From: an uncultured Spirochaetaceae bacterium
GTDB lineage: Bacteria; Spirochaetota; Spirochaetia; DSM-27196; SLST01
Assembly (NCBI GenBank): GCA_964537725.1
Contig: CAZICD010000010.1
Span: 497-64,496, forward strand
Direction of reading: 5' to 3'
DNA: 64,000 nucleotides
A program made the translations under genes and the position numbers. Below, piece after piece: positions 26,979-64,000 of the stretch. The notes under the pieces are model-generated. The model made no database searches. It was not told where the DNA came from and saw only the letters and a list, made by a program, of their open reading frames with translations. Within the stretch, counting starts at the first letter, position 1; each line of letters starts with the position of its first letter.

Positions 26979-27011
26979 GGTATGCAGACGTCCAGGCATA
27001 CCGTTTTTTTT
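26979..27011 (+). terminator. Rho-independent terminator after the Maf-like gene (shared convergent region with cheA)
   Basis: GGTATGC (26979-26985), 10-nt loop, GCATACC (26996-27002), then G and T8 (27004-27011). The T-run overlaps the cheA stop codon on the other strand. Confidence 0.6.
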
Positions 27012-29001
27012 ATGCCCGAATGGCGGCGGCCGCCTCGTCGGAGGCAAGCGACGGCGGGAAAACGAAGCTCGCCTCGCGCCCGAGCAGCCGCGAGTAGACC
27101 CGACGGGTTCTCGCGTCTTCGCGAACGACGGTTTCCTCGCCGAGCACCGCGTCCACGAGGATCGCCCGCAACTCGCTTCCCGAGCGTACGATGAGCGTGA
27201 CGGCCTCGTCGGACAACTTGCCCAGCGAGGGAGTGCGCCCGCCGACCGTGGACAGCGCGAGCGTGTGACCGTCGTGGTCGTAGTAGAGCGAGCCGAAACT
27301 GTCCCGCTTCACCCGCCGTCGCTCGAGGCGCCCGTGCGAGACGATCATGGCCGAAGGAACCGCGAACGTCACCCCGGCGGACTCGACCACGTACACGTGG
27401 ACCAGACGTGTCATCCCGGATACCGCGATCACGAAGGTCATGCCCTCCCCCGGCCGGTTCACGAGCTTGATCTCGCCGCCGAGCAGGGTGCGCACGGTAT
27501 GGACCACGTTGTCGAGCCCCACGCCCCTGCCGGAGCTCCGGTCGGGCGACGATCGCATGGAGAAGCCGGGCCGAGCGAGAATCGTCAGGAGCGGGCTCTG
27601 TGCGTCGGCGGCGCGTTCGCGCACGGCCGCCTCGTCGATCCCCGTCCCGTCGTCCTGAACGACGATGCGAACCCTGCCGCCGGCTCGATCGACTCGCACC
27701 TTCACCGTCGCCGCCGGGTGTCGCCCGAGTCTCGCCCGCTCTTCGAGCGTACCGACGCCGTGGTCGATGCTGTTGCGGATCAGATGCATAACCGCTTCAA
27801 GCAGCGTATCGCCCACCGCCGGCGGTACGACCGCACCGTTGCCGCCAACGACGACTCTCACGCGCTTTCCCTGCGCCGCGGCGTATCGGACCGAGCTCGA
27901 ACGAAGCTCGCGGAACAGGTCGAGAAGCTGGACTCTCGCCGTCCAGCCGACGCGATCCCGGAGCGCACGCGCGTACCGCCGGATGGTCTCCAGCCGTTCG
28001 GCGCGGTCCTCTTCACCGCCTGACCCGCGCAGCGCTTCCTCGGCGGAACCGAGGATCTCGTCGACGTAGAGCCCGACTTCCTCCTGCGTCTCCACGGGCA
28101 CCGTCACGCGTTCGGTCTCGTCGTTCGCCGTCTGCTCGGTGCCGGAGCTCTCGACCTCGTCCTCGAGCAGCTCCGCAAAGCTGAGCTCGGTCACTTCGAG
28201 CAACTCCACCTCGTCGACGTGCACCGCCCGGTGGACCGAATCGCGGGCAACGTCCTCCTCCGAAGGCGTCGTTACGATCAGCTCGAGCCGGGCCGGATCG
28301 CCGGTACCGAGCCGGTCCAGATCGGGCTCGGTGCGCACCACCGCGCAGGAGAGCTCGAGATTATTCACGACGAGGAACCCACGCGCGTATCGGAGCTCCG
28401 GTGCGGTCGAGATACCAACCACGACGCGGTAGACGTGCTCGCCCCGGGCACGGGCCTCGCGAAGCATGCCGCGCTCGGCCCTCGCTGCCGCAGCGAGCGC
28501 GGGGCCGCCCGCGCTCGCGTCGCTGCCCGCACTCGCGGCGTCGCCCGCGCTCGCGGCGCGGCCCACGTTCGTGTCCGCGCCGGTCGAACGACGGTCGTCA
28601 CCGGGCGAGGGCCCACCGGCCGAACGCTCGTTCGCGGGCGCCTCGGTCGTCTCGTCCGGCGACGGCTCGTTCGCCCGTCCGCTGCGGTACTCGCCGAGCG
28701 CGTCGGCGAGCGTCCGGACGCCCCGCCGCAGCGAAGCCGCGGCGGCGGCGTCGACCACGCCGCCGGCCTCCCGCACGCCGCTGAGGCTGTCTTCGAGTCG
28801 GTGGGCGGCCTCCGCCACGTCACCGATCCGAAGGAAGCCGGCCTCGGACTTGATCGAATGCGCTGCACGAAACGCCCGGTCGATGTCCGGACCGGCAAGC
28901 TGGCCGGGCCCGATCGACGCGAGCATCCGCGAGAGTGCCTCGAACATGATCGCGCTGTCGGAGTCGAACATCCGCTGCAGCTTCTGGTTCCGCCCGTTCA
29001 C
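27010..29001 (-). CDS. cheA: chemotaxis histidine kinase CheA (orphan; no cheW or cheY nearby)
   Basis: P1 HPt (FRAAHSIKSEAG), P2-like alpha/beta domain and a P3-like region. Kinase boxes HLIRNSIDHG, DDGTGID and GRGVGLD. C-terminal CheW-like P5. Confidence 0.8.
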   Translation of the reverse strand: MNGRNQKLQRMFDSDSAIMFEALSRMLASIGPGQLAGPDIDRAFRAAHSIKSEAGFLRIGDVAEAAHRLEDSLSGVREAGGVVDAAAAASLRRGVRTLADALGEYRSGRANEPSPDETTEAPANERSAGGPSPGDDRRSTGADTNVGRAASAGDAASAGSDASAGGPALAAAARAERGMLREARARGEHVYRVVVGISTAPELRYARGFLVVNNLELSCAVVRTEPDLDRLGTGDPARLELIVTTPSEEDVARDSVHRAVHVDEVELLEVTELSFAELLEDEVESSGTEQTANDETERVTVPVETQEEVGLYVDEILGSAEEALRGSGGEEDRAERLETIRRYARALRDRVGWTARVQLLDLFRELRSSSVRYAAAQGKRVRVVVGGNGAVVPPAVGDTLLEAVMHLIRNSIDHGVGTLEERARLGRHPAATVKVRVDRAGGRVRIVVQDDGTGIDEAAVRERAADAQSPLLTILARPGFSMRSSPDRSSGRGVGLDNVVHTVRTLLGGEIKLVNRPGEGMTFVIAVSGMTRLVHVYVVESAGVTFAVPSAMIVSHGRLERRRVKRDSFGSLYYDHDGHTLALSTVGGRTPSLGKLSDEAVTLIVRSGSELRAILVDAVLGEETVVREDARTRRVYSRLLGREASFVFPPSLASDEAAAAIRA

Positions 29002-29633: not shown

Positions 29634-29951
29634 TCAGCCGGAGAGATCGACGTGCCGGCCCAGGTCGGGATCGCGGAAGACCTCCTGGTCGGACCGCTCT
29701 TCCTCGCCCGAGGCGTGCTCCTCGCCGCCCCCCGATCCGCCCCCCTCCCCGTCCTCGTCGACGACTTCGGGGCCCTCCTGATCGGTTCGCAGCTCGGAGA
29801 CGCGATGGTCCTGTTGCTCGCTCCGCTCGGCAATCTCGCTCCCTGCGACCGCCTGCGCCTGCGCCTGCGCATCGCGGAGCGCGGCCTGCTCCCTGCCGAT
29901 CTGGTTCAGTCGGGAGAAGAGCACCTGCAGGTCGATGGGCTGGATCGCCAT
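29634..29951 (-). CDS. small acidic protein, unknown function
   Basis: 105 aa (MAIQPIDLQVLFSRLNQIGREQAA...). ATG overlaps the fapA TAA by 1 nt. The next start is 2 nt after its stop. Codon bias is consistent with coding. Confidence 0.4.
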   Translation of the reverse strand: MAIQPIDLQVLFSRLNQIGREQAALRDAQAQAQAVAGSEIAERSEQQDHRVSELRTDQEGPEVVDEDGEGGGSGGGEEHASGEEERSDQEVFRDPDLGRHVDLSG

Positions 29952-31897
29952 TATACCCTCCTGCCGATCGTGACGTCCTCGTCCGACTCCTCGTACTTGG
30001 TGACCTTGACCGTGTTCTTGTCGGCGACGAACGTGACCGCTTTGAACTCGTTGCGAACCTCGAGGAACGCGTCCTTGATGCTGATGCGTACTCCCGGGTA
30101 GACGGTTCCGGAAGCCGAGATTCGCCCCGACACCTTCAGGTCGCCCAGGTAGTCGCGGAGCTCCTGAATCTGGCTGTCGATCTTCTTCACCTCACCCTGC
30201 AGCGCGACCTTCTGCTCCTTGAGCTCCTGGTAGTACGATTTCTTCTCCTCGGATACCGAGCGACCCGAGCGCACGAGGTTCTCGATCGTGCTCATGTTGA
30301 GCTTCAGATCGTCGAGCTTCTGCTGGTGCTCCTCGCGAGTGGTTTCGAGCGCGGCGAGCTTCTCCTTGCGTTTCGGGTCGTATCCGACTTCGAGTACCGT
30401 CTCGCTGCCGGCCACAGAACCGAGCGTCTTCGCGTTGATCTCTTCGACCGCCTTGAGCTGCCCGCCCACGATACTCGCCCGTTTGCCTCGGCAGATGATC
30501 TTTCGGTCGGCGAGCATCTCGCAGTTCATGATGCCGTCGGAGACGACGACGAGGTCACCGGACTCCACGCGCGCGTTCTCGACGAACTTCGCCCAGAGGC
30601 TGCGTCCGCATCGGATCGTTCCTGCATTCTTTCCCGCAATTCCCTGGTGGACGATGATGTCGCCCTCCGCATCAAGCTTGCTCTTGCCGACGCTGCCCAT
30701 GACCTCGATATTGCCGGCGGCCTTCACGGTAAAACCGTCGTCCACGTTGCCCTTCACGAGCACGGTGCCGAGGAAGAGCACGTTCCCGGTACGCAGGTTG
30801 ACGTCACCGGCGATGACGTGGACCGGCTCGACGGTTATCCTGCCCGCGCTGAGGACGACCTGCCCGTTGATCTCGGCGATCGCGCTCTTGCCGTCTTCGG
30901 CGAGCCGGACGTTCTTGCCGACGGGCATCTCGACGTCCTTCCCGTCGGTCGCCGGGAGAAGCTTGCCGGTCACCGTGCGGCCCGGCTCACCACGCTCGGC
31001 TTCCTCCTTGCGCGCGAGCACTTGGCCCTGGACGACGTTCTGGACGAGGTTCAGCTCCTTGAAGTCGACGCGTCCATCGGTCTCCTTGAGCGTGATCTGA
31101 CTCGGGTCGAGGTCGAAGCTGTAGCGAACCTGCGCGTCGTCACCGTTCTTCGGGGGGATCCCCTTCGCGACGAGAACCGCTTCCCGATAGAGCGGGTCCT
31201 CGACGAAGTTGCCGATCACGGTCTCGTCGATGCCCTCTACCACTCCGTTCATCTGCAGGAACGATACGACCTGGTCGAACGACGGGTCCGCCCCGCCGTC
31301 GCCGGGCGGGTAGGCCGTGAGGTAGGCCTTCATCTCGCCGTCGGCGAGCTCCACGGACAGCGACGCATCGGCGGACGGGTCGTACTCGAAATCACCGACC
31401 TTGATGAACTCGCCCTGCGCAAGTTTCACCGCCTTGGACACGCGTCCCTTGTCAATACCGTCGTCGGTCCGCTCGAGGAGCTTCTCCATCGCCTGGCGCT
31501 CGGTTGCCTTCGACCCGCTGCCGCGAGGCCTGGTGACCTTGAGCATGATCCCGTCCGGTGTCATGCGAACGAACACGCGCCCGTCGCGATCCTTCTCCTC
31601 TTCTTCCTCGGCGAGGAGCGAGAGATCGATCTTCGTCTCCTCCTGCTCGCCGGCCTCGTCGACCTTCTCGCGAGCCGGATACGCCAGCAGGAGCCAGGGC
31701 TTCTTCCCGACCCCGAGCATGCCGCGCGAGCCGCGCTCGAGCACCTCGTACTCGACCTTCTTGATGGGCAACCCCAGCTCGATCGAAGCCTGTTCGAGCG
31801 CATCCTCGAGCGTATCGCCGGACACGTTGACACCCTTGTCGCTGTCCTGGTCGAGTTGCTCGCGCATGTACGACTGGATCTGATCGAGCGTGACCAC
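29951..31897 (-). CDS. fapA: FapA (DUF342) family flagellar-assembly-associated protein
   Basis: 648 aa. N-terminal Jag-like segment (LEDALEQASIELGLPIKKVEYEVLERGSRG). Long beta-helix repeat region (GNVLFLGTVLVKGNVDDGFTVKAAGNIEVMGSV...) and a C-terminal coiled coil. GTG overlaps the fliA TAG. Confidence 0.7.
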   Translation of the reverse strand: MVTLDQIQSYMREQLDQDSDKGVNVSGDTLEDALEQASIELGLPIKKVEYEVLERGSRGMLGVGKKPWLLLAYPAREKVDEAGEQEETKIDLSLLAEEEEEKDRDGRVFVRMTPDGIMLKVTRPRGSGSKATERQAMEKLLERTDDGIDKGRVSKAVKLAQGEFIKVGDFEYDPSADASLSVELADGEMKAYLTAYPPGDGGADPSFDQVVSFLQMNGVVEGIDETVIGNFVEDPLYREAVLVAKGIPPKNGDDAQVRYSFDLDPSQITLKETDGRVDFKELNLVQNVVQGQVLARKEEAERGEPGRTVTGKLLPATDGKDVEMPVGKNVRLAEDGKSAIAEINGQVVLSAGRITVEPVHVIAGDVNLRTGNVLFLGTVLVKGNVDDGFTVKAAGNIEVMGSVGKSKLDAEGDIIVHQGIAGKNAGTIRCGRSLWAKFVENARVESGDLVVVSDGIMNCEMLADRKIICRGKRASIVGGQLKAVEEINAKTLGSVAGSETVLEVGYDPKRKEKLAALETTREEHQQKLDDLKLNMSTIENLVRSGRSVSEEKKSYYQELKEQKVALQGEVKKIDSQIQELRDYLGDLKVSGRISASGTVYPGVRISIKDAFLEVRNEFKAVTFVADKNTVKVTKYEESDEDVTIGRRV

Positions 31898-32685
31898 TAC
31901 ATGATCCCCTTCTTGATATTGGTCAGCTTCGCCCGAAGCCGCATGATCGCCTTCGTGTGCAGCTGTGATACCCGCGACTCGGTCACTTCCAGAACCTGCC
32001 CGATCTCCTTCAGGGTGAGATCTTCGTAGTAGTAGAGAACGAGCACCTTCTTTTCCTTGTCCGGCAGATCCTGAATCGCCTCCATGATGACGCGCTTGAT
32101 CTCGTCCTTCTCGACGATGATGTCCGGATTGAGGCTGTCCGGGCTCTCGATGCTGTCGGCGATGGAAACCTTGTCGTTGTCCTCTCCGGTATACCAGACG
32201 TCGTTGAGGCTGAGGATGGAGGTCGACGAGACCTTGAGCATCGTCTTCTCGAAGTCCTTCGAGGACATGCCCATTTCTTTCGCGATCTCCGCGTCGGTCG
32301 CGGCGCGGCCGAGCGAGCTCTCCAGCCGGCGTACGCTCTCCTCGATCTCCCTGCTCTTCTGCCGCACCGAGCGAGGAACCCAGTCGATCGACCGCAGCTC
32401 GTCGAAGATGGCGCCGCGAATCCGGGTGACGGCGTACGTCTTGAACTTCACGTGCTTGTCGGGATTGAACTTCTCGATCGCGTCGAAGAGGCCGAACACG
32501 CCGTAACCCACGAGATCGTCGAACTCGACGTTGTGCGGCATTCCCACCGCGACCTTGCCGGCGACGTACTTGACGAGCGGAGCGTACTGCTCGACGAGAC
32601 GGTCGCGCACCTCGGGGTTGCGGGTCTCTTGGTAGATCCGCCAGAGCTCTTCTTCTGTTTTTTCGGCCAGGAGGTTCTCTCCCAT
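31897..32685 (-). CDS. fliA: flagellar sigma factor sigma-28 (FliA/WhiG)
   Basis: 262 aa. Region 2 is [36 protein letters not shown]. Region 4 is [22 protein letters not shown]. Confidence 0.9.
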
Positions 32686-32697
32686 GACTCCCCTTCC

Positions 32698-33498
32698 CTA
32701 TTCTTCTCGCTTCAGGACCGTCCGAATCGCGCGAGCCATCACTTCCGGATCCTCGCCCGAGTCACCCGACGATTCCTCGTCCTCGCTGTCGTCCATGGCC
32801 GCCTCGGAGAAATCGCCCGAGAACCCCTCGATATCCGGCAGGCTTCCGGTGCTCGCCGCCTCCGGCGCCGCCTCTTCAAGGTCCTCCGGAGCCTCGCGTC
32901 CGTCAACCGAGCCCTCGCCGGCGTCCCCCGACGCCGGCGTCGCGGTTTCACCGCTCGGTTCGGTGTCCGCCTCCTCAAGCTCGGTGACCTCTTCGTCCGC
33001 GCCGCCGGCGTGGACGCGCTCGGCGGCGAGCCCCGGCGTGAATGTCGCGTGGTCCGCGGCAGCGTGGTCCGCGGCCGCGTCATCCGCGACCGCGTCATCC
33101 GCACCGTCGTCCTGCTCGAGCTCCTCCACGTCCTCGTCACCGGAGCCGCTCGAAACCCCCGGCTCCTCCGCTTCCTCCAGGTCGAAATCGCTCGCCCCGA
33201 GTCCCCCCGTGTCGACCTCGTCGTCGACCACGATGTCCACCCGGCCGCCTGGCGTTCCCTGTCCATCTGCCGACTGTCCGTCGGACGCTCCGCCTCCCTG
33301 CATCGACTGCTTGAGATCCGGGAGGTAGCGGTCGATCACGTACGACACCGCGGCTGCGCCCGCGCCGAAGACGACCCCGCCGATGATCCCGCGGACGACC
33401 AGTGCGCCGAAACCGACACCACCGAGAATGCCTGAGAGAAGAGAGAGGACGAGCGCCGCCGTGGCGGCGACTGCGCTGGCACGCCAGTCAAACCTCAT
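32698..33498 (-). CDS. membrane protein with long Asp/Glu-rich tail, unknown function
   Basis: 266 aa. Two Gly-rich TM helices (ALVLSLLSGILGGVGFGALVV; GGVVFGAGAAAVSYVI) followed by about 190 aa of D/E/A/G-rich sequence. Lies between flhG and fliA. Confidence 0.5.
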   Translation of the reverse strand: MRFDWRASAVAATAALVLSLLSGILGGVGFGALVVRGIIGGVVFGAGAAAVSYVIDRYLPDLKQSMQGGGASDGQSADGQGTPGGRVDIVVDDEVDTGGLGASDFDLEEAEEPGVSSGSGDEDVEELEQDDGADDAVADDAAADHAAADHATFTPGLAAERVHAGGADEEVTELEEADTEPSGETATPASGDAGEGSVDGREAPEDLEEAAPEAASTGSLPDIEGFSGDFSEAAMDDSEDEESSGDSGEDPEVMARAIRTVLKREE

Positions 33499-39845: not shown

Positions 39846-40115
39846 TCAGCCGACCATCCCGGGTATGGAGTCGAACACGTTCCGTGCGAACTGCACGAGG
39901 ACTCTGATCATCCAGGGCCCCATGACGAAGATCGAGATCAGAATCGCCGCGATCTTCGGGACGAAGGTGAGCGTTTGCTCCTGGATCGACGTCGTCGCCT
40001 GCACGATCGACACGATGAGGCCCACCACGAGGCCCGTGATCAGCGCCGGCGCGGCGACGATGAGGATGTAGAAGACGCCGCTGCGAATGAGCTGTACCGC
40101 GAATCCCAGATCCAT
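39846..40115 (-). CDS. fliQ: flagellar type III export protein FliQ
   Basis: 89 aa. MDLGFAVQLIRSGVFYILIVAAPALITGLVVGLIVSIVQATTSIQEQTL. Start shares 1 nt with the fliP stop. Confidence 0.9.
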   Translation of the reverse strand: MDLGFAVQLIRSGVFYILIVAAPALITGLVVGLIVSIVQATTSIQEQTLTFVPKIAAILISIFVMGPWMIRVLVQFARNVFDSIPGMVG

Positions 40116-40930
40116 CAGAAGCCTCCAAAGCTCGCGACGAGCTGTTGCGACAGCAACGTCCACCCGTCCACGAGCACGAACAGGATCAGCTTGAACGGCA
40201 GCGAGATCATGATCGGCGGCAGCATGATCATACCCATGGACATGAGCGTGGACGCGACGACCATGTCGATCACGATGAACGGTATGTAGAGGAGAATGCC
40301 GATCTTGAAGGCTACGGTGAGCTCGTGCAGGATGAACGCCGGGATGAGCGCGTGCGTGGGCACGTCCGCGAAGGTCGCCGGCGCCGGCATGTCGCCCATC
40401 CTCATGAAGAGTCGGATCGTGTCGGGGCTCGCCTCCATCTGCCGGTACATGAACAGGCGCATGGGGGCCTCGAACTCCCGATAAGCCTCCTCGATCCCTA
40501 TCTCGCCCTCGGCGAGCGGGACAAACGCATCCTCGTACACCGTGGTCAGCGTCGGCCACATGATGAAGACGGTCATGAACAGCGCGATCCCCATGAGCAC
40601 CTGCGACGGCGGCACCTGCTGGAGCGAGAGCGCCCGCTTGACGAAGTCGAAGACGATCGCGATCCGCAGGAAGCTCGTCATCAGAATGATGATCGACGGC
40701 GCGAGGCTGAGGACCGACAGCAGCAGCAGCAGCTGCAGCGAGAGCGCCACCTCCTGATTGCTCTCCGGCTCGCGAATCTCGAGGTTCACGAACGGGATCT
40801 GCAGAGCCTCCTCGCCTTCGGGAACGACATCGGCGGCGTTCCCGAGCTCCTGCGACGAAACCGACGGAACGACGGTGAGCGCGAGCAGCGCGATGACGAG
40901 TACGATGGTTGGTGTTCGTAGACGATTCAT
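40115..40930 (-). CDS. fliP: flagellar type III export protein FliP
   Basis: Signal peptide, then LSLAPSIIILMTSFLRIAIVFDFVKRALSLQQVPPSQVL and the remaining conserved FliP core. Confidence 0.92.
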   Translation of the reverse strand: MNRLRTPTIVLVIALLALTVVPSVSSQELGNAADVVPEGEEALQIPFVNLEIREPESNQEVALSLQLLLLLSVLSLAPSIIILMTSFLRIAIVFDFVKRALSLQQVPPSQVLMGIALFMTVFIMWPTLTTVYEDAFVPLAEGEIGIEEAYREFEAPMRLFMYRQMEASPDTIRLFMRMGDMPAPATFADVPTHALIPAFILHELTVAFKIGILLYIPFIVIDMVVASTLMSMGMIMLPPIMISLPFKLILFVLVDGWTLLSQQLVASFGGF

Positions 40931-44501: not shown

Positions 44502-45236
44502 TCACAGCGTTCCCTCCGTGAGGATAATCACATCCACGCGCCGGTTGTAGGCGCGTCCCTCGGCGGTCGTGTTCTCGACGAGCGGGGCGTACTCGCCCCG
44601 ACTCATGAGCTGGAACTGCTCCTCGTCCACGCCGTAGTCGACGAGGTACCGCAGGACCGACTGCGCACGCGCCGAAGCGAGGTCCCAGTTCGATTCGAAG
44701 TCGCTCGGCTGACCAACCGGTATGTTGTCGGTGTGCCCCTCCAACCGGAAGGTGCGGTCGCCGAACGCCTCGGCGTCGAGCAGTTGCGCGAGCTTGCGCA
44801 GCACCTCCCGGGTCTGTTCTATGTTCACCTCCGCGGAACCGCTCTCGAAGAACGCGTCCGCGGCGAGCGAGATCACGAGCCCCCGCTCGTCCTCGGTGAT
44901 CCGCACGAGGTTGCTGCGGATCTCCGGCTCGAAGATGCTCACCGCCTCGCGGCGCGCCTCGCTGAGCGCGCGCCCTCGTTCCATGGACGGGAGCGACATA
45001 ATCGTGTTGCCGAGCTCGGCGAGCGGTCCGGCTTCGAGCGTGTTTCCGCCGGTGTAGTTGCCCAGCCCCGGAAAAGCGGCGAGTATCAGCCGAAGCTGAT
45101 AGCCGTCGATCGTCGCGGTCGTGAAGAGAAGCACGAAGAAGGTGAGCAGGAGCGTGACCATGTCACCGTAGGTGAGCAGCCAGTCCGCGGCCCCTTCGGG
45201 TGGGCATTTCTTCTTTCGTTCTCCCGGTCCTGCCAA
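44502..45236 (-). CDS. motB: flagellar stator protein MotB
   Basis: WLLTYGDMVTLLLTFFVLLF with the conserved Asp. C-terminal OmpA-like domain (GHTDNIP...NRRVDV). Confidence 0.9.
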   Translation of the reverse strand: MAGPGERKKKCPPEGAADWLLTYGDMVTLLLTFFVLLFTTATIDGYQLRLILAAFPGLGNYTGGNTLEAGPLAELGNTIMSLPSMERGRALSEARREAVSIFEPEIRSNLVRITEDERGLVISLAADAFFESGSAEVNIEQTREVLRKLAQLLDAEAFGDRTFRLEGHTDNIPVGQPSDFESNWDLASARAQSVLRYLVDYGVDEEQFQLMSRGEYAPLVENTTAEGRAYNRRVDVIILTEGTL

Positions 45237-45257
45237 CGGTCCTCCTCCGGTCCCAGC

Positions 45258-46043
45258 CTAATCCCGGGCCGATTCCTGGCGCAAGACCTCGCGCTGCTGC
45301 GGCGGGAGGAAGCTGATCAGCTTCTCCAGGAGTATGCGCGGGTTGTCGCCGGACTGGATCGAGAGGATCCCCTCGATCACGATCTCCTTGACCCGTGTCT
45401 CCTCCTTATCCCGATCCTCGAGCTTGGTCTTCAGCGGGATGAGCACCAGGTTCGCAAAGAGCGAGCCGTAGAACGTGGTGATCAGCGCTACCGCCATACC
45501 GGCACCGATGACCGCGGCGTCGCCGCCCAGATTGACCAGCATCTGGATGAGGCCGATCAGCGTCCCGATCATCCCGAAGGCGGGCGCGATCTTGCCCCAG
45601 TCCTCGAAGATCCGGATCCCGCTCTCGTGCCGGCTCTGGATCTCGTTCAGGTCGTGGTACAGAATACTCTTGATGATGTCGGGGTCGGTCCCGTCGACGA
45701 CGAGCTGGATGCCCTTGCGCATGAACTCGTCTTCGACCTCGTCAAGGTTGTCCTCGAGCGCGAGCAATCCTTCGCGCCGCGCCCGCTCGCTGAAGGCGAC
45801 GAGATCGCTGATGATCTTCTCCTCCTGCCAGTCGGGCGATCGCAGCGCGATGCGGATGTACTTCACGATCCCGAGCATCCGGGCCAGCGGATTGGCGACG
45901 AGCATCGCGGCGAACGATCCGCCCACGACCACCAGAATCGACTGCAGGCTGATGTAGTTCCCGATGCCCGCACCGCCGGTGATGATCGTGAGGAGAACAA
46001 GAGCGAAACCGCTCGCTATGCCGATAATCGTTCCAAGATCCAC
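45258..46043 (-). CDS. motA: flagellar stator protein MotA
   Basis: 261 aa, four TM helices. APAFGMIGTLIGLIQML and TTFYGSLFANLVLIP segments. Confidence 0.9.
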   Translation of the reverse strand: MDLGTIIGIASGFALVLLTIITGGAGIGNYISLQSILVVVGGSFAAMLVANPLARMLGIVKYIRIALRSPDWQEEKIISDLVAFSERARREGLLALEDNLDEVEDEFMRKGIQLVVDGTDPDIIKSILYHDLNEIQSRHESGIRIFEDWGKIAPAFGMIGTLIGLIQMLVNLGGDAAVIGAGMAVALITTFYGSLFANLVLIPLKTKLEDRDKEETRVKEIVIEGILSIQSGDNPRILLEKLISFLPPQQREVLRQESARD

Positions 46044-46049: not shown

Positions 46050-46247
46050 TTACCCCTCGTTCTTGAATGCCCCGATGAGGCGCCGGTAGTCGACGATCTC
46101 ATCAAAGACGGTCCGGTAGTCCTCCTGGACTACCAGACGCTTGCCACTGAGCATAATGAGCGTTGTATCGGGATTGGATTCGATGTACTCGATCTGATGC
46201 GGGTTCACATAGTACTCATGCCCATCAAGCCGGGTCACCTTTATCAT
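46050..46247 (-). CDS. flbD: flagellar protein FlbD
   Basis: 65 aa. MIKVTRLDGHEYYVNPHQIEYIESNPDTTLIMLSGKRLVV matches the FlbD family. Lies between flgE and motA. Confidence 0.85.
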   Translation of the reverse strand: MIKVTRLDGHEYYVNPHQIEYIESNPDTTLIMLSGKRLVVQEDYRTVFDEIVDYRRLIGAFKNEG

Positions 46248-46265: not shown

Positions 46266-47672
46266 TTATCGCTTCAGTGTTAAGACTTCCTGCAACATCT
46301 GGTCGGACGTCTGGATTGTCCGCGAGTTGGCCTGGAAGCCCCGCTGTGTGACGATCATGTCGGTGAACTGCTCCGCGAGGTCTACGTTGCTCATCTCGAG
46401 CGTCCCGGCGATGATCTTGCCCTTACCCGCGGCTCCCGGAGGATCGACCAGCGGGTCCCCGGAGTTGATCGTCGTTACGTACGTGTTCTCTCCCGCCTTC
46501 TCCAGCCCGCCCGGGTTGACGAAGCTCGCGAGCGCGAGCTGCCCGAGCGCGCGATTCGTGCCGTTGGAGTAGATGCCGGTGACGACACCGCTCTGGTCGA
46601 TGCGGAAGTCCTCGAGGTAGCCCATCGCGTACCCGTCCTGCCGGACGAGCTTGTTCGTGCTCTCGCTGGTGAACTGCGTCGTCGACTCGTCCATCCCGCC
46701 GACCTGCCCGATGTCCATCGTGACGGTCTGCGTAACCGGAGGCTCAGCAAGGCCGGTGGTGGGGTCTACCGGGACCGAGGTGTCGGGGACGAGGAAGCTC
46801 ACGTCGATCGTCAGGTTCTCGTTTGCGTCGAGACCGCCGGCCGCGTTGGAGATCTGGCTCAGTCGCCCGAAATTGTCGAACTCGACGACGTAGGTGTTGT
46901 CCTCCGACTCGACCCCCCCGACCGAGACGGTCGGCGTGACCGGGCTCTCGGTGTCTTCGTTGATCGTTACCTCGGCCTGCCACTCGTTCGGCGAACCGTC
47001 AATCCGCGTGTAGTCGATGCGCATCTGGTGCGCTCCGCCGAACGCGTCGTAGATCTCTTTGGTCACGGTGTGGGTCCCGGCGGCTATCTCCTGCTCGCTC
47101 GCACCCGGGGGAATCACCGGTGTGCGCTTGTCCAGGTTGCTCGCGGCAAAGACGAAGGTCGTCTCGCGCGCCTCGTCCTTCTGGCCGATGGGGATCACCA
47201 GGTCCCCCGGCGTCGCCGAGGTGTTGATGAAGGTGTCCGCCCCCTCGGTCTGCGCGGTCCAGCCCTGGACGCGCATTCCGTTGGCCGGGTTCACGAGGGT
47301 CCCGTCTTCGTCGAGGCCGAAGGCGCCGGCGCGCGAGTAGAGATCGACATCCCCCTCGCGCATGACGAAGAACCCCTCGCCCTGGATCGCCACATCGGTC
47401 TTGACCCCGGTGGTCTGCAGCGACCCCTGGTTGAAGATCGTGTCGATGGAGGAGATCTGCATGCCCAGCCCGACCTGCCTCGGGTTGACGCCGCCAACGC
47501 GTTCGTTCGGACGGGAAGCACCCTGCAGGTTCTGGCTGATCATGTCGTGGAAGTTGACCCTGCCCTTCTTGAATCCCGTCGTGTTGACGTTCGAGATGTT
47601 GTTACCGATCACGTCCATCCGGATCTGGTGGTTCTGCAGGCCACTCACGCCCGCGTACAGACTTCGCATCAT
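46266..47672 (-). CDS. flgE: flagellar hook protein FlgE (cysteine-free)
   Basis: 468 aa. MMRSLYAGVSGLQNHQIRMDVIGNNISNVNTTGFK N-terminus. C-terminus MIVTQRGFQANSRTIQTSDQMLQEVLTLKR. Confidence 0.92.
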   Translation of the reverse strand: MMRSLYAGVSGLQNHQIRMDVIGNNISNVNTTGFKKGRVNFHDMISQNLQGASRPNERVGGVNPRQVGLGMQISSIDTIFNQGSLQTTGVKTDVAIQGEGFFVMREGDVDLYSRAGAFGLDEDGTLVNPANGMRVQGWTAQTEGADTFINTSATPGDLVIPIGQKDEARETTFVFAASNLDKRTPVIPPGASEQEIAAGTHTVTKEIYDAFGGAHQMRIDYTRIDGSPNEWQAEVTINEDTESPVTPTVSVGGVESEDNTYVVEFDNFGRLSQISNAAGGLDANENLTIDVSFLVPDTSVPVDPTTGLAEPPVTQTVTMDIGQVGGMDESTTQFTSESTNKLVRQDGYAMGYLEDFRIDQSGVVTGIYSNGTNRALGQLALASFVNPGGLEKAGENTYVTTINSGDPLVDPPGAAGKGKIIAGTLEMSNVDLAEQFTDMIVTQRGFQANSRTIQTSDQMLQEVLTLKR

Positions 47673-47687: not shown

Positions 47688-48134
47688 TTATTCCTGTTCC
47701 GCCCGGACTCGTTGCACAGCCGAGTAGTCGTAGTAACGCCCGTCGACGAGGACCTGCGGGTAGTCACCACCGGTGACCTCCTGCACGACGCCGCTGATTG
47801 TCGAAGCTCCCAGGTCAATGTCCACACTCTTGCCGAGGAGCGATACGGCCTGGCCCGACTGCAGCAACGCGCCGAGCTGCCGGAACTCGCCGGACATGTT
47901 CGTCATCTGTTCGAGCGTCGAGAACTGCGCCATCTGCGCGATGAACTCGCGGTCCTTCATGGGCTCGGTCGGATCCTGGTTCGTGAGCTGCGTGATGAGG
48001 ATCTGCAGGAACTCGTCCTTGCCCATCTCGTTCTTCGCGACGCGCGTGTTGTTCAGCTCGAGGTTGAAGTTCTCGTTCTGCGCACGCAGCCGTTCGACCT
48101 CAGCGTTGTTCATGTCCAGCGATATTCCGTCCAT
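47688..48134 (-). CDS. flgD: flagellar hook capping/assembly protein FlgD
   Basis: 148 aa. [22 protein letters not shown] and [12 protein letters not shown] motifs. Confidence 0.88.
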
Positions 48135-48144: not shown

Positions 48145-49965
48145 CTACACGATCAGGTCTACCAGGTCGTGTCGTTCTTCGATCGAATTCACCGTGGGGA
48201 CGGCGTTGTCGAACGTCGCCGCTGCGGCTCCGCTGCTCTGCTTGCCGGGTGACCCGTCATCGGTCTGCCCGGAGTCACGGCCGGAATCGGCAACGGTCAC
48301 TTCCAGCCCCGACGCGTCCATGCCGCTTTCGGCGAACGCCTTCTGAAGCGCTGCGAGGTTCTGCTCGAACGCCTCCCGTACATTCTGATTGTCGACAATA
48401 ATCCGTCCGGCTATATGGCCGTCCTGCATCTGCAGCGCGATTCGCACGCTTCCGAGCGATTCAGGCTTCAGATTCAGGCGGATCTCGCCGCGATCGCCGC
48501 CACGAACGACGAGCCTCGCCGAGCGGACGATCTCGCCGTTGAGCTGCTCGTTGAACGCCCGCCGCAGCTCGGCGGTCGCCGTGCTCATCCGGGTCGCCGA
48601 CGCCGCCGATCGGCCCGTCCGGCCGCCCGCGGCGTCCCCGTCGGCCCGCAGCGCTTCGAACGAGCTCGTCGCTTCGCGGCCGGAGCCGGAATCGTCGCCG
48701 GTCGCGCCGCGGCCCTGCGAGGCCTGCGAGCGCAGCGTCGAGCCGCTCCCGTCGTTTTCACGGCGCGCATCGGCGCCTCCGTCGGAACCGCCGCCGGAAT
48801 CGTTGGCGCGTGCACGCAGGTCGCGCACCTCGACGCGCCGGCCCGCGCGTTCGCCGCCTTCATCGCGCGCTTCGCGGGTGGCGTCGCCTCGTCGTGCCGC
48901 CCCGCGCTCCTGCCCGGCGAGTTCGGCGCGAAGATCGCTCTTCGAACCGTCAAGGTCGCCGCGGGCTCTCGCGGCACGGGCCGCTTCGCGCGCGCGCGTG
49001 GCCTCGGCCGCCGCTTCATCCGCCTCGGCGCCGTCGCCCTTCGCCGGCGCGTCGGCGACCGTGTCGTCCGCACGGACCGCGGCCTTTGCCTGGCCCTCGT
49101 GTGAACCGTGACCATCGGCGGAACGAACGCCGTCACCGCGGGGCTCGCTATCGACGCGCACGTCGATCTCCACCGAGGTCCGCCCGTCGCGCCCGGTAAC
49201 GCGTGGTTGCACCGAAGCGCGTCCGCTCTTCTCGGCGCGCGCGAGCGAGTGCTCAGCGTCCGCGGCCGCCTTCATCGCGCCGCTTATCTCACCACCCCCT
49301 CGCGAGGCGAGCTCCTTCGCGGCGTCGGCCGCGCTGTCGGCCGCGCTGTCGGCCGCGCTGTCGGCCGCGCTGTCGGCCGCGCCGGCTGCTGATTCGGACT
49401 TGTCGGCAGACCCGCGCTCGGCCCGGCGGGAGCGCTCGGCGAGCTCGCTGCTCGCGTTCCCGGATTCCTTCCTCGCGGACTCCGCCGCGTCGTCGCGATC
49501 GTCGGCCGCGCGCTTCTCCGCCGCGCGGGCGTCGGCGGAGCGCTCTGCGGCGTCTTCGTCGGCGCGCCTAGTCGCGCGGCGCTCGGCCACGCGGCGCGCC
49601 TCGTCGGCTCGCGATCGATCGGCCGACGCGTCGGTCGGCTCGGGCTGCTTCGGGGTTTCGTTCGAGACCTTCGTGGAGGCGCCCTGCGAGGCGTCGTCGG
49701 AAGGCGGGTCGGTCTGGTGCGGCGTCCGGTCACCGGGAGGCTCGCTCGCCCGCGCCACGTCTCCGGCGTCGCGCGCAGCCGTTCCCGCCTGCATGACGGA
49801 AGCCAAATAGGCGGCGAAGCCGCCGCCAGCGAAGCCGCCGCCAGCGACATCACCGCCGGGCGGCAGACCCGACGCGTTGCGCAGAGGAGACAGCGTCACG
49901 GTCGCGTGGCGTCGTGCGAACTCGACCGAGGCGGCGTCAGGTTGTGGGGTCAGACTAATCGGCAC
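48145..49965 (-). CDS. fliK: flagellar hook-length control protein FliK
   Basis: 606 aa. Very long charged, low-complexity N-terminal and central region. C-terminal Flg_hook-type domain ([40 protein letters not shown]). Lies between flbB and flgD. Confidence 0.7.
49324..49382 (-). repeat. 12-bp in-frame tandem repeat (about 4.9 copies) inside fliK
   Basis: Plus-strand unit GTCGGCCGCGCT is repeated head-to-tail. It encodes (AADS)n: [20 protein letters not shown]. Confidence 0.9.
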
Positions 49966-50602
49966 CCTCTATCTCCGGCAGCATCTCGATTTTTTCACCG
50001 ATTGTTGCTGCTCGGTCGGAGGGCATCAACGAAAGCCAGAACGGTACGATCGACGCCTGGCCGGCCTCTTCAGCAAGCTCATCGGTCACCAGGAGCACGT
50101 CGATCAGCGTCGGGTCCTGATACCCGACCATGATGTTCACGGCGTCCTCCGGCGGCATGTTGGTGAGATACGTTGAGAGCTTCACCAACGCTGCTCTTTC
50201 ATTCTCGACTCGCCGAAGAGCTTCGTTTACTGAATTTTCGCGGTCGGCAAGCGTCGCCTCCCGCTCCTCGAGTTGCTCGGCCAGCGCCTGGAGCTCCGCT
50301 TCTCGCGCGTCCAGCGACGCGGCGCGCTCGTCGAGCTGGCCCGAGAGAATGGCCAGCGCTTCTTCGCGCTTCCCGAGCCGCTCGTCCTCGAGCAGGAGCG
50401 GGCTGTCCTCGACGGTGACCGGCTCCTCGCGCGGTTCGAGTCCGACCCACCGCAACGCCGGGGAGAACAGCGATGTGACGTCGATCAGGCCGAGGAAATC
50501 GAACCAGAGCGCTCCACCGAACGCGAGCACGAGAACGAGCAGCGTCAGCCCGAAGATGCGCGGCGCCGCGCCGACACGACTGTAGCCCTGATCGTCATAC
50601 AT
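49955..50602 (-). CDS. flbB: FlbB/YlxF-type flagellar protein (spirochaete collar-associated family)
   Basis: 215 aa. N-terminal TM helix, a coiled coil and a C-terminal MgtE-N-like segment (MPPEDAVNIMVGYQDPTLIDVLL). Lies between fliJ and fliK, as flbB does in Borrelia and ylxF in Bacillus. Confidence 0.6.
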   Translation of the reverse strand: MYDDQGYSRVGAAPRIFGLTLLVLVLAFGGALWFDFLGLIDVTSLFSPALRWVGLEPREEPVTVEDSPLLLEDERLGKREEALAILSGQLDERAASLDAREAELQALAEQLEEREATLADRENSVNEALRRVENERAALVKLSTYLTNMPPEDAVNIMVGYQDPTLIDVLLVTDELAEEAGQASIVPFWLSLMPSDRAATIGEKIEMLPEIEGAD

Positions 50603-59106: not shown

Positions 59107-59654
59107 GAGGCCGCCTCCGTCGTGAGCTCCTCGAGGGTGAGCGCTCCATTGGTGTAGATACAGATGTTCCCCGCGATCGCCAGGCTCCGCTCGGCGATCT
59201 CGCGGGCCGCCAGGCTCGACTCGTCGAGGTAGGCGAGCGCCGCGGCGAGCGCGTAGTTGCCGCCGCTGCCGATCGCGATCGCCCCCTTGTCGGGCTCCAC
59301 GACGTCGCCGGTGCCCGAGATGAGAAAGGTCTTCTCGAGGTCGGCGACCAGCAGCAAGGCCTCCAGCCGGCGAAGCATCCGGTCGGTTCGCCACTCCTTG
59401 GCGAGCTCGACGGCGCCCCGCATCAGGTCGCCGGAGTACTCGTTGAGTTTGCCTTCGAAGCGCTCGAAGAGCGTGAACGCGTCGGCCGTCGCTCCGGCGA
59501 AACCGACGAGGATGCGGTCGCCGTAGAGCCGACGGACCTTACGTGCGTTCGCCTTCATGACCGTCTGGCCCATCGTGACCTGTCCGTCGCCGGCCATCGC
59601 GACGTTCCCGTCCTTTCGGACGCAGAGAATGGTGGTACCGTGCATCGTACTCAT
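59103..59654 (-). CDS. hslV: ATP-dependent protease subunit HslV
   Basis: 183 aa. [27 protein letters not shown] (CodW-like N-terminus). [10 protein letters not shown] and GSGGNYA motifs. ATGA overlaps on both sides. Confidence 0.9.
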
Positions 59655-60634
59655 TCCGTAACTCCCTTCGCTGTACCACCGCCCGAGCGTCCCGCGTGCG
59701 GGTGCGCCTGCTGGTAAATTCGTTTCAGCGCCCCCAGCCCGAGGTGCGTATACACCTGCGTCGTCGACAGCGAGCTGTGACCGAGAAGCTCCTGAACGAC
59801 ACGGATGTCCGCGCCATGATCGAGGATATGCGTCGCGAAGCTGTGCCGGAACGTGTGCGGACTCACCTTCTTGGCAATCCCCTTCTCCACGACGCGCTTC
59901 TGGATGATCCCGGCGACTCCGCGCTGCGTGATCCGCCCTCCGTTGGCGTTGATCACGAGCGCCTTCTCGTCGCCACGGCCGAGCCGCGCCACGCGGGACG
60001 ACCGGTACGGCAGGTAGTCGGACAGCACCTTCTTCGCGGTGCCTCCGAGAAACACGATCCGGTCCTTGCGGCCCTTTCCGTGTACGATGATCCTGCCCCG
60101 CTTGAAGTCGATCTCGTCCAGGTTGATCGTGACGAGCTCGCTGATTCGGCAGCCGGTGGAGTACAGCAATTCCAAGATAAGTCGATCGCGCAGCGTGGTG
60201 AAGTCGTCGCCTTCGAGCTCGAGCAATCGACCCATCTCCTCCTCGAAGAGGAAGCCCGGCAGGTGTCGCTGACGTTTGAGCCCCCGCACACCCTCCAACG
60301 GTGAGGCAGACGCGCGTCCGGTGAGGACGAGGAAGCGAAAGTAGCCCTTCAGCGACGAGAGCGCCCGGTTCACCGTGCTCACCGCCGCGTTCTGGCGCGA
60401 CAGGTGCGCCACGTAGCGCCGCACGAGCGCGGCGTCGACCTCGGACTCGTCGAGCGTGTTCGACACGAGCCACTCGTCAAAGGCGGTGAGGTCGCCGCGG
60501 TAGGCGCGGACGCTCGCCTCGCTGAGATTGCGCACGCTTCGAAGGTAGTCGAGGTACTCCGAGGCAGCGGCGAGGCCCGCGAACGCGGGCCGCTCGCCGG
60601 ATGCGTCGCGTCGGTCGTCCATACGCGCGCTCAT
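59651..60634 (-). CDS. xerC: tyrosine recombinase XerC/CodV
   Basis: [11 protein letters not shown] (catalytic Arg), [12 protein letters not shown] and [15 protein letters not shown] motifs. Sits in front of hslVU, as codV does in Bacillus. Confidence 0.8.
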
Positions 60635-61665
60635 CCGCCCGCCTCCCCGCCCATGGCGGCTCGCATCTGCGCCACGCGCGCCGCCGCGGCGTCACCGCTC
60701 GACCGCGGCTGCTCCCGGTCGGCTGCCGCAGTACGCTCGCACGCGCCTGTGACGTGGCGCACGCCCCATTCGCCGAGGATGTCCGCCGCGCCGTCGACGA
60801 TGAGCGCCCCGTCGGCGGCGAGCTCCGCGGTGCCTGCGCCTTCGGGCGGCTCGAGCCCGGCACGGTGGACGAAGAGGTCGCGCCCGTGGTCGAGCGCGTA
60901 GTCGGCGGTGATGAGCGCGCCGCTTCGCGCCGGCGCCTGGACGACCACCACACCGCGCGAGAGTCCGCTGATGATGCGGTTTCGCGCCGGGAAGTGATAC
61001 TTCAGCGGCGCGACGCCGGGCGCGTACTCGGTCGCGAGATAGCCGCCGGCGTCGAGGATCGCGGCGGCGACGCCCCGGTGCGAGGACGGTGAGACGATGT
61101 CGATCCCGGACGCGAGGATCGCCCCGGTCACACCGCGCGAGAGCGCCCCGCGGTGGGCGGCCACGTCGATCCCGAGCGCGAGCCCGGAGACGACGGTGAG
61201 CCCGGCGTCGGCCAGCTCGGCAGCGAGCCGCTCGGCGGCGATCACGGCCCCGGCGGTCGGGCGTCGCGTGCCCACGAGGGCGACCGACGGCAGCTCGTCG
61301 GCGGGAAGCTCCCCCCGTACGTAGAGGAGGAACGGCGGGTCGTAGATCTCGCGCAGCGCAGCGGGATAGCGCCGGTCTGCCTGCGAGATCACGCGGATTC
61401 CGCGCGAGCGGAGGAAGGCGAGGTCCTGCTCGGCGAGCCGGAGCAGCTCATCCGGGGTCGGCTGCGCGCGGCCGCGCGAACCCGACTCGTCACGGTCGGC
61501 GCGACGGGTCCCGACCTGCCGCCCCACCATCTGCGACAGCAGCCCCGGGGTGAGCGCGCGGAAGAGCGCCTCGCTGTCCACGAGCTCGTCGACGAGACAC
61601 TTCTCGTTCGGACGCAGCACGTCGAAGCGGTTGATCGCGAGCCGCAGTACCGGTTCGGGGATCAC
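60631..61665 (-). CDS. dprA: DNA-processing protein DprA (Smf)
   Basis: VALVGTRRPT, VVSGLALGIDVAAHRGAL and GALITADYALDHGRDLFV match the DprA Rossmann-like core. Confidence 0.85.
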   Translation of the reverse strand: MIPEPVLRLAINRFDVLRPNEKCLVDELVDSEALFRALTPGLLSQMVGRQVGTRRADRDESGSRGRAQPTPDELLRLAEQDLAFLRSRGIRVISQADRRYPAALREIYDPPFLLYVRGELPADELPSVALVGTRRPTAGAVIAAERLAAELADAGLTVVSGLALGIDVAAHRGALSRGVTGAILASGIDIVSPSSHRGVAAAILDAGGYLATEYAPGVAPLKYHFPARNRIISGLSRGVVVVQAPARSGALITADYALDHGRDLFVHRAGLEPPEGAGTAELAADGALIVDGAADILGEWGVRHVTGACERTAAADREQPRSSGDAAAARVAQMRAAMGGEAGG

Positions 61666-62378
61666 GATTCACCTCCAAGGAGCAGCTGCCGGTTGCGCTC
61701 GGCGCGGCGGCGCATCTCGTCGCCGGGGGCCGTACGGATGATCCGGTCGTACGCGTCTACCGCCTCGTCGACGTTTCCGAGCGCGACGTGCGCGCGCGCG
61801 AGGACGAAGAGCGCCGGCGCGTGGTTCTCGCTGATATCGAGCGCGTGCTCGAGGTGGGGGAGCGCCTTCACCGGCTCGCCGAGCTCGAAGACGTAGAGCA
61901 CCCCCAACCCGTAGCGCGCGTCCAGGTAATTCGGCGATATCTCGACCGCCTCGAGGTAGGAGCGCTCGGCGAGCCGGAGGTACTCGGCACGCACGTCCGG
62001 CCGCGCCTGCGCCTTGCCGACGTACCCGGCGGCGACCGCCGCGAGATAGTGGAGCACGTGGTTGCGCGGCTCGATCCTGATCGCCTCCTCGTAGGCGTCG
62101 AGCGCGGGGCCGTAGAGTTCCTGCCGCATGTACTCCTGACCGAGCAGCTTGAGCGCATCGGCCTCGCGGATCGCCGCCTCGATCGCCTCCGCGACCAGGT
62201 CCTCGTATTCGGCGATCGTGCGTTTCAGCTCCTGCACACGGTCCTCCGACGGCGGCTCCGGCTCGAGGTTGCGCATGCTCTGCAGACGCGCATCGTCGCG
62301 CTCGCACGAACCGAGCATCAGCACGAGACTCATCGCTGTGAGCAGCGCGAACGATACGCCCGCGCGGCGCCGCGTCAT
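61662..62378 (-). CDS. TPR-repeat lipoprotein
   Basis: Lipobox LMLGSC. Repeated 34-aa TPR-like helices (YGPALDAYEEAIRIEP; YLEAVEISPNY; ...). Confidence 0.6.
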   Translation of the reverse strand: MTRRRAGVSFALLTAMSLVLMLGSCERDDARLQSMRNLEPEPPSEDRVQELKRTIAEYEDLVAEAIEAAIREADALKLLGQEYMRQELYGPALDAYEEAIRIEPRNHVLHYLAAVAAGYVGKAQARPDVRAEYLRLAERSYLEAVEISPNYLDARYGLGVLYVFELGEPVKALPHLEHALDISENHAPALFVLARAHVALGNVDEAVDAYDRIIRTAPGDEMRRRAERNRQLLLGGES

Positions 62379-62421
62379 TACTCTCGTCCCCCTCTACGGG
62401 CCGAACGTGCGTCGTGCATCA

Positions 62422-63309
62422 CTACCGTCCCCTCGGATGGAAATCCGCGTGATACGTAGCGAGCTCCTCTCGATCGACGTGGGTGTAGATCTGGGTCGTG
62501 GAGATATCGGCATGGCCGAGCAGCTCCTGCACCGCCCGCAGGTCCGCCCCACCCTCGAGGAGGTGCGTCGCGAACGAGTGGCGAAGCGTGTGAACCTTGG
62601 CGTCGACCCCCGCCTTCACGGCGATCTCGCGGAAACGCTTCCACATGCCCTTTCGCGAGAGTTGCTGCCCCCGGTTGTTCAGGAAGAGCGCGTTCTCCGG
62701 CCGCTTCGCGAGCTTCCCGCGCGCCTCGTCGAGGTACCGGCGAAGCCAGTGCCGCGCGTGCTCGCCCATGGGAACGAGCCGCTCCTTGTCGCCCTTGCCC
62801 CGCACCCGGATCAGTCGCTCGGCGAGGTAGACGCGGTCCAAGGTCAGCTCGACCGCCTCTGAGATCCGCAGTCCGCACGAGTAGATGAGCTCGAAGAGCG
62901 CACGGTCGCGCAGCCCGAGCGGACCGTCGACCTCGATCGCCGCGAGCAGTCGCTCGACCTCCTCCACGTCGAGCACCCCGGGCACGCGGTGCGCCATGCG
63001 CGGCACCTCGACGAGCGTCGCGGGATTGTCCTCGCGCTCGCCCTCGAGAACGAGATAGTGAAAGAGGCTGCGCAGCGCGCTGATCGTCTTCGCGATCGTC
63101 CGCTGGTCGATCCCGTCCTCCTGCTGACGCGCGATGAGGTAGTCGATGATCTGCGTCGTCGCCACGTCCTGAGCGGTCGCCTCGTTCTCTTCGAGCCAGA
63201 CGAGAAAGCCACGGCAGTCGCGCACGTAGGTCGAGACGCTCCCGCGGGAGAGTCGGAGCCCCGCGGTCAGATAGTCTTCGAAGCTGCGGATGAGCTGCTC
63301 AGGCTCCAT
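62422..63309 (-). CDS. xerD: tyrosine recombinase XerD
   Basis: 295 aa from [40 protein letters not shown] is XerD-like. Also [12 protein letters not shown] and [15 protein letters not shown]. Start overlaps the ftsZ stop by 11 nt. Confidence 0.8.
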
Positions 63310-64000
63310 GCTCGCCACCGACCTGCTGGTACCGGAGTACCGCCGGTATCCCGAGCTCGTCCATGTCACCGCTCTCCGAGCCGAGCACCTGTTCGCGGCT
63401 GCGGTTGAGCTTGTTCCGCGTCATTTCCGACCACTGGTTGAGCGAGATGTACTCCTCGTTCTGGTCCTCGCTCTTCGCCGCCGGCTTCGTCTCACCGGGG
63501 TCGCGGTTGAACCCGGTCGCGATGACGCTGACCTTGACCTCGTTCTCCATGAGCTCGTCGACGGCGGTACCGGCGATGATGAGCGCATCCTCGTCCGCGT
63601 TCGCGGTGATGATCGTGAGGATCTCCTCGTACTCGGTCAGCGTGAAGTCGAGGCCCCCCGAGACGTTGACGAGAATCCCCTTCGCGCCTTCGATGCTCGC
63701 ATCCTCGAGCAGCGGGTTGTTGATCGCGGCGGTCGCCGCGTCCACGGCGCGGTTGTCGCCGTCGCCGGTCCCGATACCCATCAGCGCGTCGCCCTGACCG
63801 CTCATGATCGTCCGCACGTCGGCGAAGTCTATGTTGATCTCGCCCGGTTTCGTGATCAGATCGCTGATACCCTGCACCGCCTGGCGCAGCACGTCGTCGG
63901 CGACGAGGAACGCCTGCGTAATGGGCGTCTTCTTGTCGACGATCTTCAGCAGGTGCTGGTTGGGGATGATGATGAGCGTGTCCACCGCCTCGCGCAGCTT
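63299..64000 (-). CDS. ftsZ: cell division protein FtsZ (C-terminal part; 5' end outside window)
   Basis: ...[27 protein letters not shown] and GILVNVSGG segments. C-terminal peptide [12 protein letters not shown]. Confidence 0.92.

Follow-up and report, generated by a model that had tools for sequence, protein, structure and literature searches.

A Leptospira-like Ser-type flagellar hook protein with a predicted lysinoalanine cross-link site in an uncultured Spirochaetaceae bacterium

At the cross-link site of the spirochaete flagellar hook protein FlgE, the residues K165, C178, N179, T334 and K336 have been marked (PMC10691653, Fig. 1F legend), and Cys at position 178 characterizes the canonical type of Treponema, Borrelia and Brachyspira. 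FlgE of Leptospira possesses Ser179 instead of this Cys, yet lysinoalanine is found in purified flagella as well as in the recombinant protein (Lynch et al. 2023, PMC10691653). The reaction of the recombinant Ser protein is slower than that of Cys and requires pH 10-11 in vitro; its authors name "currently unknown cellular factors" as a possible compensation for the low reactivity of Ser (PMC10691653). The C178S variant of Treponema denticola FlgE also cross-links in vitro, with less high-molecular-weight product, and FlgE of Brevinema andersonii contains K165, S178 and T328 (both PMC10691653). According to a 2026 preprint of the same group, the motif is composed of a Lys, C/S-N-L and a Thr, with S-N-L as a valid variant (10.64898/2026.05.22.727228). 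Here we analyze the flgE gene in a stretch of 64,000 nucleotides from an uncultured Spirochaetaceae bacterium (GenBank assembly GCA_964537725.1, contig CAZICD010000010.1, positions 497 to 64,496), which is referred to as the window. Judged by its site residues and by analogy with the described proteins, the window FlgE is likely a Leptospira-like Ser-type hook protein that cross-links via lysinoalanine through the single canonical link between K165 and position 178. The finding is real but ordinary, as Ser-type hook proteins of this kind have been described before, in Leptospira.

The predicted cross-link site of the window FlgE

The gene and the residues of the site are located as follows:

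46266..47672, minus strand: flgE, flagellar hook protein with domains D0-D1-D2 (open reading frame (ORF) and translation, 468 aa)
47178-47180, minus strand: codon AAG of Lys165, the predicted lysinoalanine nucleophile in the D1-D2 linker
47133..47141, minus strand: Ser178-Asn179-Leu180, encoded by AGC AAC CTG (Ser178 at 47139-47141, Asn179 at 47136-47138, Leu180 at 47133-47135), the S-N-L variant of the C-N-L motif
46650..46658, minus strand: Thr339-Asn340-Lys341 (TNK in the translation), of which Thr339 and Lys341 correspond to the last two of the marked site residues

The sequence around the site reads IPIGQKDEARETTFVFAASNLD. An initial annotation of this DNA had described a 468-aa FlgE without Cys that has Lys at 165, Ser at 178 and Asn at 179; the ORF translation bears out these residues as well as their codons, coordinates and local motif, and the cysteine count of the protein is zero. 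Regarding the canonical Cys type, Ser takes the place of Cys at 178 and Cys occurs nowhere else. The best match among PDB chains (phmmer) is T. denticola FlgE 6ndx_B, a C178A crystal construct, with an E-value of 3e-93. Because residues 92-193 of the query align to this chain without a gap, so that query positions 165 and 178 fall on K165 and residue 178 of T. denticola, Ser178 is by alignment the homologue of T. denticola Cys178. The initial annotation had left room for two other outcomes, namely a position 178 that is not homologous to the cross-link Cys or a Cys supplied from a neighbouring position; the ungapped alignment and the Cys-free protein speak against both. In the same alignment T. 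denticola T334 maps to T339 of the query and K336 to K341. The window FlgE includes the complete published motif – K165, S178-N179-L180, T339 and K341 – with Ser at the Cys position, and Ser178 is its predicted dehydroalanine precursor.

The domain organization and the predicted fold are those of a spirochaete hook protein. Precomputed Pfam annotation of the identical protein P0001 lists PF00460, PF22692, PF07559 and PF06429. The AlphaFold2 (AF2) monomer model has a mean pLDDT of 76, with values of 85-94 over D1/D2 (about residues 90-420); the D0 helices are of low confidence, as expected for a monomer. In Foldseek comparisons, the modelled D2 domain matches the T. denticola dehydroalanine intermediate 6ndt (TMt 0.92, root-mean-square deviation (rmsd) 2.3 Å) and chain 6ndx_D of the cross-linked dimer (TMt 0.92, rmsd 2.1), and the site is thus carried by a spirochaete-type D2 fold.

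In the proposed mechanism, FlgE subunits would first assemble into the periplasmic hook. Ser178 in the D2 domain of one subunit would then lose water or hydroxide by beta-elimination and become dehydroalanine, to which the epsilon-amino group of Lys165, situated in the D1-D2 linker of the neighbouring subunit, would add to form an inter-subunit lysinoalanine; Asn179, Thr339 and Lys341 would shape the site. In the cell, this reaction might proceed by self-catalysis alone, or it might be helped by an additional factor or a high periplasmic pH.

Of the described systems, L. interrogans FlgE is similar in several respects: it shares the Ser in S-N-L, the Lys 13 residues upstream, a Thr in the D2 loop, the D0-D1-D2 organization and a periplasmic hook. 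Only the Leptospira protein, however, possesses the extra Lys145 and Lys148 that give rise to alternative cross-link isoforms. The lysines of the window FlgE are at positions 35, 36, 91, 165, 182, 205, 341, 392, 417, 419 and 467; because its translation contains no Lys between residues 91 and 165, the K165-178 link is the only one to be expected, and Lys145/148 isoforms are not. The two proteins are only about 50% identical. Turneriella parva (Leptospirales, P0124) also has Ser at the site, and its FlgE is 52% identical to the window FlgE.

With T. denticola FlgE (PDB: 6NDX, 6NDT, 6NDW) the window protein has in common the numbering of K165, 178 and N179, the D2 fold and the type of operon. 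The difference lies in the leaving group: Cys178 of T. denticola eliminates H2S readily, whereas the Ser of the window FlgE would have to release water or hydroxide. Among the proteins tested by experiment, the T. denticola variant C178S comes closest to the window FlgE; it cross-links in vitro at reduced yield (PMC10691653). Brevinema andersonii provides another non-Leptospira spirochaete with Ser at the same number; it belongs to a different order, and cross-link competence is predicted there just as it is for the window FlgE. The same three-part motif (Lys, C/S-N-L, Thr) was the search criterion behind FlgE of Thermanaerovibrio acidaminovorans and 282 non-spirochaete "S-N-L" candidates, but these proteins belong to other phyla, form extracellular flagella and carry extra D3/D4 domains, and the tested Synergistota protein is Cys-type (bioRxiv 10.64898/2026.05.22.727228).

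Serine and cysteine at position 178

The comparison with relatives is based on 187 distinct sequences, pooled and de-duplicated, with at least about 60% identity to the window FlgE. Column 178 of these proteins is occupied by Ser in 136 cases (73%) and by Cys in 51, and no other residue is present; Lys165 is found in all 187. Column 339 contains Ser in 153 and Thr in 34 relatives, column 341 Lys in 184 and Arg in three. A similar picture emerges from the best 120 homologues in a collection of 5.8 billion proteins (Ser 94, Cys 26), in which K165 and N179 are invariant and the site Cys, where present, is the sole Cys of the protein. Ser-type members with species or genus names are Spirochaeta africana, S. 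dissipatitropha, Alkalispirochaeta americana and one metagenome-assembled genome (MAG) of Salinispira, while FlgE of S. thermophila is Cys-type. The initial annotation had assumed a Cys shared by the spirochaete genera; this premise is outdated, given Ser179 in Leptospira and S178 in Brevinema (PMC10691653) and the acceptance of S-N-L as a motif variant (10.64898/2026.05.22.727228). Ser-type hooks are not a peculiarity of Leptospira, since those 136 of 187 related Spirochaetaceae-type FlgE include cultured, genome-sequenced species, among them Spirochaeta africana and Alkalispirochaeta americana; the presence of Ser in cultured Spirochaetaceae is not stated in the text of PMC10691653.

The codons AGC (Ser) and TGC (Cys) differ by one base, as the initial annotation correctly pointed out, and a sequencing or assembly error that turned a true TGC into AGC was among its explanations. 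The evidence from other genomes leaves this explanation with next to no probability. The 90%-identity cluster of the window FlgE comprises 13 further proteins, which come from independent assemblies (NCBI, JGI, Logan and ENA); all 11 of them that cover the site have Ser there and no Cys. The 31 homologues nearest to the window FlgE, with identities of at least 76%, all contain Ser178 too, and the site codon is AGC or AGT in the ten closest genome loci. The closest genome loci are from uncultured Spirochaetaceae MAGs, with a best identity of 87%.

A set of 81 loci, consisting of 80 species-representative genome loci and the window, was used for the analysis of codons and for tree inference. Ser is encoded by AGY in 29 of these loci (AGC 18, AGT 11) and by TCN in 27 (TCC 15, TCT 6, TCA 4, TCG 2), and Cys by TGY in 25 (TGT 17, TGC 8). 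Fitch parsimony yields at least five Cys/Ser changes, and at least ten changes among the codon classes AGY-Ser, TCN-Ser and TGY-Cys; both counts are approximate, being derived from a single-gene neighbour-joining tree of FlgE. An exchange between AGY and TCN Ser codons is impossible in one step, and the intermediates encode Cys (TGY) or Thr (ACY). Because Thr was never seen at column 178 while Cys is abundant there, the codon-class pattern points to long-standing selection for a residue able to undergo beta-elimination, i.e. one convertible to dehydroalanine, with Cys and Ser as apparently functionally interchangeable solutions. Since the window FlgE groups with Spirochaetaceae rather than Leptospirales, and Cys and Ser have changed at least five times, its Ser probably arose separately from that of Leptospira.

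No column separates Ser-type from Cys-type sequences consistently in a mutual-information analysis of the 187 relatives. Compensatory substitutions were considered for the top-ranking columns (336, 299-308 and 331), but these turned out to be clade markers, which include a 6-residue insertion, and they are unchanged in the Ser/Cys sister pairs L031/L037 and L054/L029.

A separate observation concerns the Thr of the motif. The residue aligned to the "catalytic" Thr334 of T. denticola is Ser in 153 of 187 relatives, with Thr one position further on (S-S-T-K). In the clade of the window the same stretch reads S-T-N-K or S-S-N-K, and the close relatives L001 and L002 have no Thr there at all. This leaves two readings: a Thr requirement less strict than the published motif states, or a shift of one residue in the alignment.

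For comparison, we examined 150 FlgE representatives of 50%-identity clusters, mostly from other phyla, together with the query (151 sequences). The most frequent residues at column 178 are Gly (90), Cys (18), Ser (16, query included), Asn (12) and Lys (9); because Gly is the commonest, the FlgE fold as such does not require Ser or Cys at this position. Lys at column 165 is present in all 18 Cys-type and in 13 of 15 Ser-type representatives, but in only 11 of the 117 others (Fisher p = 3e-15 for Cys-type vs others, 7e-10 for Ser-type vs others). Ser178 and Cys178 are thus alike in their association with the nucleophilic Lys. Two other candidate signals were rejected. Asn179 and Leu180 are near-universal in FlgE generally (N179 in 148 and L180 in 144 of 151 sequences) and do not serve as evidence for the cross-link. 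The complete lack of Cys, which had been singled out in the initial annotation, is normal for FlgE and carries no information: the Cys content of the 19 other operon proteins is 0.18%, corresponding to about 0.8 Cys per 468 aa and a probability of about 0.44 for none, and 85 of the 117 diverse FlgE with neither Cys nor Ser at the site are entirely Cys-free.

These patterns bear on the alternative of a hook without covalent cross-links in this lineage, with Ser178 kept for structural reasons – a hydrogen bond of the D2 loop, for example – and Lys165 for an interface contact. We regard this as unlikely. The poor reactivity of Ser is in its favor, given the high pH that the Leptospira protein needs in vitro and the reduced product of T. 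denticola C178S (PMC10691653). Yet an abandoned cross-link should have led to drift towards Gly, Ala, Asn or Thr and to a loss of K165 somewhere among the 136 Ser-type sequences. Instead, position 178 is never Gly, Ala, Thr or Asn in the 187 relatives, even though Gly dominates FlgE at large, and K165 is invariant there and statistically tied to Ser/Cys178 across diverse FlgE. Furthermore, the repeated interchange of Cys and Ser among close relatives suggests equivalent function, and the Ser-type hooks of Leptospira are cross-linked in vivo (PMC10691653). With K165 invariant and 178 limited to Ser and Cys, the un-cross-linked hook that the initial annotation had proposed is disfavoured.

Nevertheless, some considerations count against a cross-linked Ser-type hook in the window. 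The bond is deduced, for this protein as for the Ser-type Spirochaetaceae as a whole, from sequence and from the analogy with Leptospira and T. denticola. Compared with Cys, Ser provides a far poorer leaving group; cross-linking of recombinant Leptospira FlgE requires pH 10-11, and its authors suspect cellular factors (PMC10691653). Conservation reveals a constraint on Ser/Cys and Lys and not the bond itself, the universal Asn179 and Leu180 add no weight, and the numbers of Cys/Ser switches are approximate.

Possible routes to dehydroalanine and habitat

Ser dehydration chemistry normally needs activation, and a dedicated factor could help to make dehydroalanine from Ser178, for instance by phosphorylation or glutamylation of the hydroxyl group followed by elimination, in a lanthipeptide-like manner. 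The Leptospira authors raise cellular factors as a compensation for the low Ser reactivity (PMC10691653), which would fit this explanation. We nevertheless consider it improbable, and neither the window nor the surroundings of flgE in the 80 related loci support the enzyme route mentioned in the initial annotation. Pfam scans of about 50 of the roughly 55 window genes predict no LanB-, LanC-, LanM-, dehydratase-, cyclase- or kinase/lyase-like proteins. None of the 80 related loci has a gene inserted beside flgE; all 80, Ser-type and Cys-type alike, share the arrangement flgD-flgE-flbD-motA, in which no gap exceeds 154 bp. FlgE is exported by the type III pathway and would be cross-linked only after assembly in the periplasm, where ATP-dependent activation is presumably unavailable. 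Moreover, recombinant Leptospira FlgE cross-links without any factor (PMC10691653). A helper encoded away from flgE and outside the window is possible. Lanthipeptide dehydratases (LanB, LanM, LanKC/LanL) produce dehydroalanine from Ser, and a nucleophile is then added to it; the dehydration proceeds by cytoplasmic enzymatic activation of the hydroxyl group, and their likeness to the window FlgE stops at the dehydroalanine intermediate.

For the cross-linked Ser-type hook, habitat pH provides a further lead. Several of the closest loci are labelled CSSed16, i.e. MAGs from Cock Soda Lake, which is hypersaline with a pH of 10 (PMC6704655). FlgE is likewise Ser-type in Alkalispirochaeta, Salinispira and Spirochaeta africana. 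It is conceivable, though doubtful, that most free-living Spirochaetaceae use Ser as the cross-link residue and that repeated toggling between Cys and Ser tunes hook chemistry to the habitat. If so, the unbuffered periplasm of alkaliphiles might make Ser sufficient, pH 10-11 being the in vitro condition for spontaneous Ser-type cross-linking, whereas Ser-type lineages at neutral pH (Leptospira, MAGs from peat and soil) would need an undiscovered helper. Alkalinity as a general explanation was rejected: according to habitats read from isolate names, Ser-type FlgE is also found in MAGs from peat (SPRUCE), soil (MFD) and Guaymas sediment. An alkaline habitat is a lead for the clade of the window only, and it is not established. 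Should Ser-type hooks be cross-linked as proposed, periplasmic Ser dehydration would become approachable in several independent lineages, some of them at pH 10, with a bearing on proposals for inhibitors of the Cys-dependent cross-link.

The motility operon and the remaining window

The flgE gene is part of a standard spirochaete motility operon, in agreement with the spirochaete-type setting described in the initial annotation, and all genes of this operon are on the minus strand. Their order is flgB-flgC-fliE-fliF-fliG-fliH-fliI-fliJ-orf215-fliK-flgD-flgE-flbD-motA-motB-fliL-fliM-fliN-fliO-fliP-fliQ-fliR-flhB-flhA-flhF-flhG, followed by fliA, a FapA-like gene and cheA. The genes surrounding flgE are:

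48145..49965, minus strand: fliK, hook-length control, 606 aa with a middle part of low complexity (PF02120, E 7e-16)
47688..48134, minus strand: flgD, hook cap (PF03963, E 1.4e-21), directly upstream of flgE with a gap of 15 nt
46050..46247, minus strand: flbD (PF06289, E 1.4e-24), directly downstream of flgE with a gap of 18 nt
44502..46043, minus strand: motA and motB, stator genes (PF01618, PF13677, PF00691), downstream of flbD

The window has a G+C content of 66%. As such it contains nothing unusual; scans for tRNA genes and for Rfam families at the gathering threshold yielded none in its 64 kb.

FliK is mostly of low complexity and rich in Ala, Asp, Arg and Glu, and the Flg_hook match is confined to the C-terminal ~70 residues. 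Its gene contains a perfect tandem repeat of 12 bp (4.9 copies, 49324-49382), which encodes (ADSA)n, and a second repeat of 15 bp (2.3 copies, 49814-49847). The copy number of these repeats could render the length of the hook-length ruler variable. Between fliJ and fliK lies an ORF of 215 aa (49955-50602, minus strand), for which no Pfam family is predicted above the threshold; a weak coiled-coil-like match to RNase_Y_N (E 1e-4) is below the cut-off. Its position suggests that this ORF is the counterpart of flbA-type genes, which are uncharacterised members of flgB operons in spirochaetes.

Two further genes of the operon have ambiguous starts. The fliQ gene (39846-40128, minus strand) is hidden in the last 89 codons of a spurious, longer ORF (39846-40559), whose reading frame differs from that of fliP, with which it overlaps. 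The "FliR" ORF comprises 359 aa, the N-terminal ~100 residues of which are not FliR, and the start is probably an internal Met (MVIDGL...). Both are ordinary start-codon ambiguities of a genome with 66% G+C.

Directly after flhF/flhG and an ORF of 266 aa (32698-33498), the region 29951-32685 (minus strand) encodes a sigma-28-type FliA (262 aa) and a FapA-like protein with a Jag_N domain (648 aa); a CheA-like kinase is located at 27010-29001. Near these motility genes, and adjoining a PBP2-like transpeptidase, a protein of 583 aa (25141-26892, plus strand) possesses an MptE-like domain (PF01973), which is also present in Maf-type flagellin-glycosylation proteins. The region 59651-63369 (minus strand), upstream of an HslU-like AAA protein and flgB, encodes two tyrosine recombinases of the XerC/XerD-like type (327 and 315 aa), with a DprA-like gene and an ORF of 238 aa between them. 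Finally, the region 9882-13473 (minus strand) contains a DEAD/Helicase_C protein with a C-terminal MrfA Zn-binding domain (786 aa), followed by a protein of the RNase_H_2 superfamily (422 aa), and this gene pair resembles the MrfA/MrfB helicase/exonuclease pair of DNA repair.

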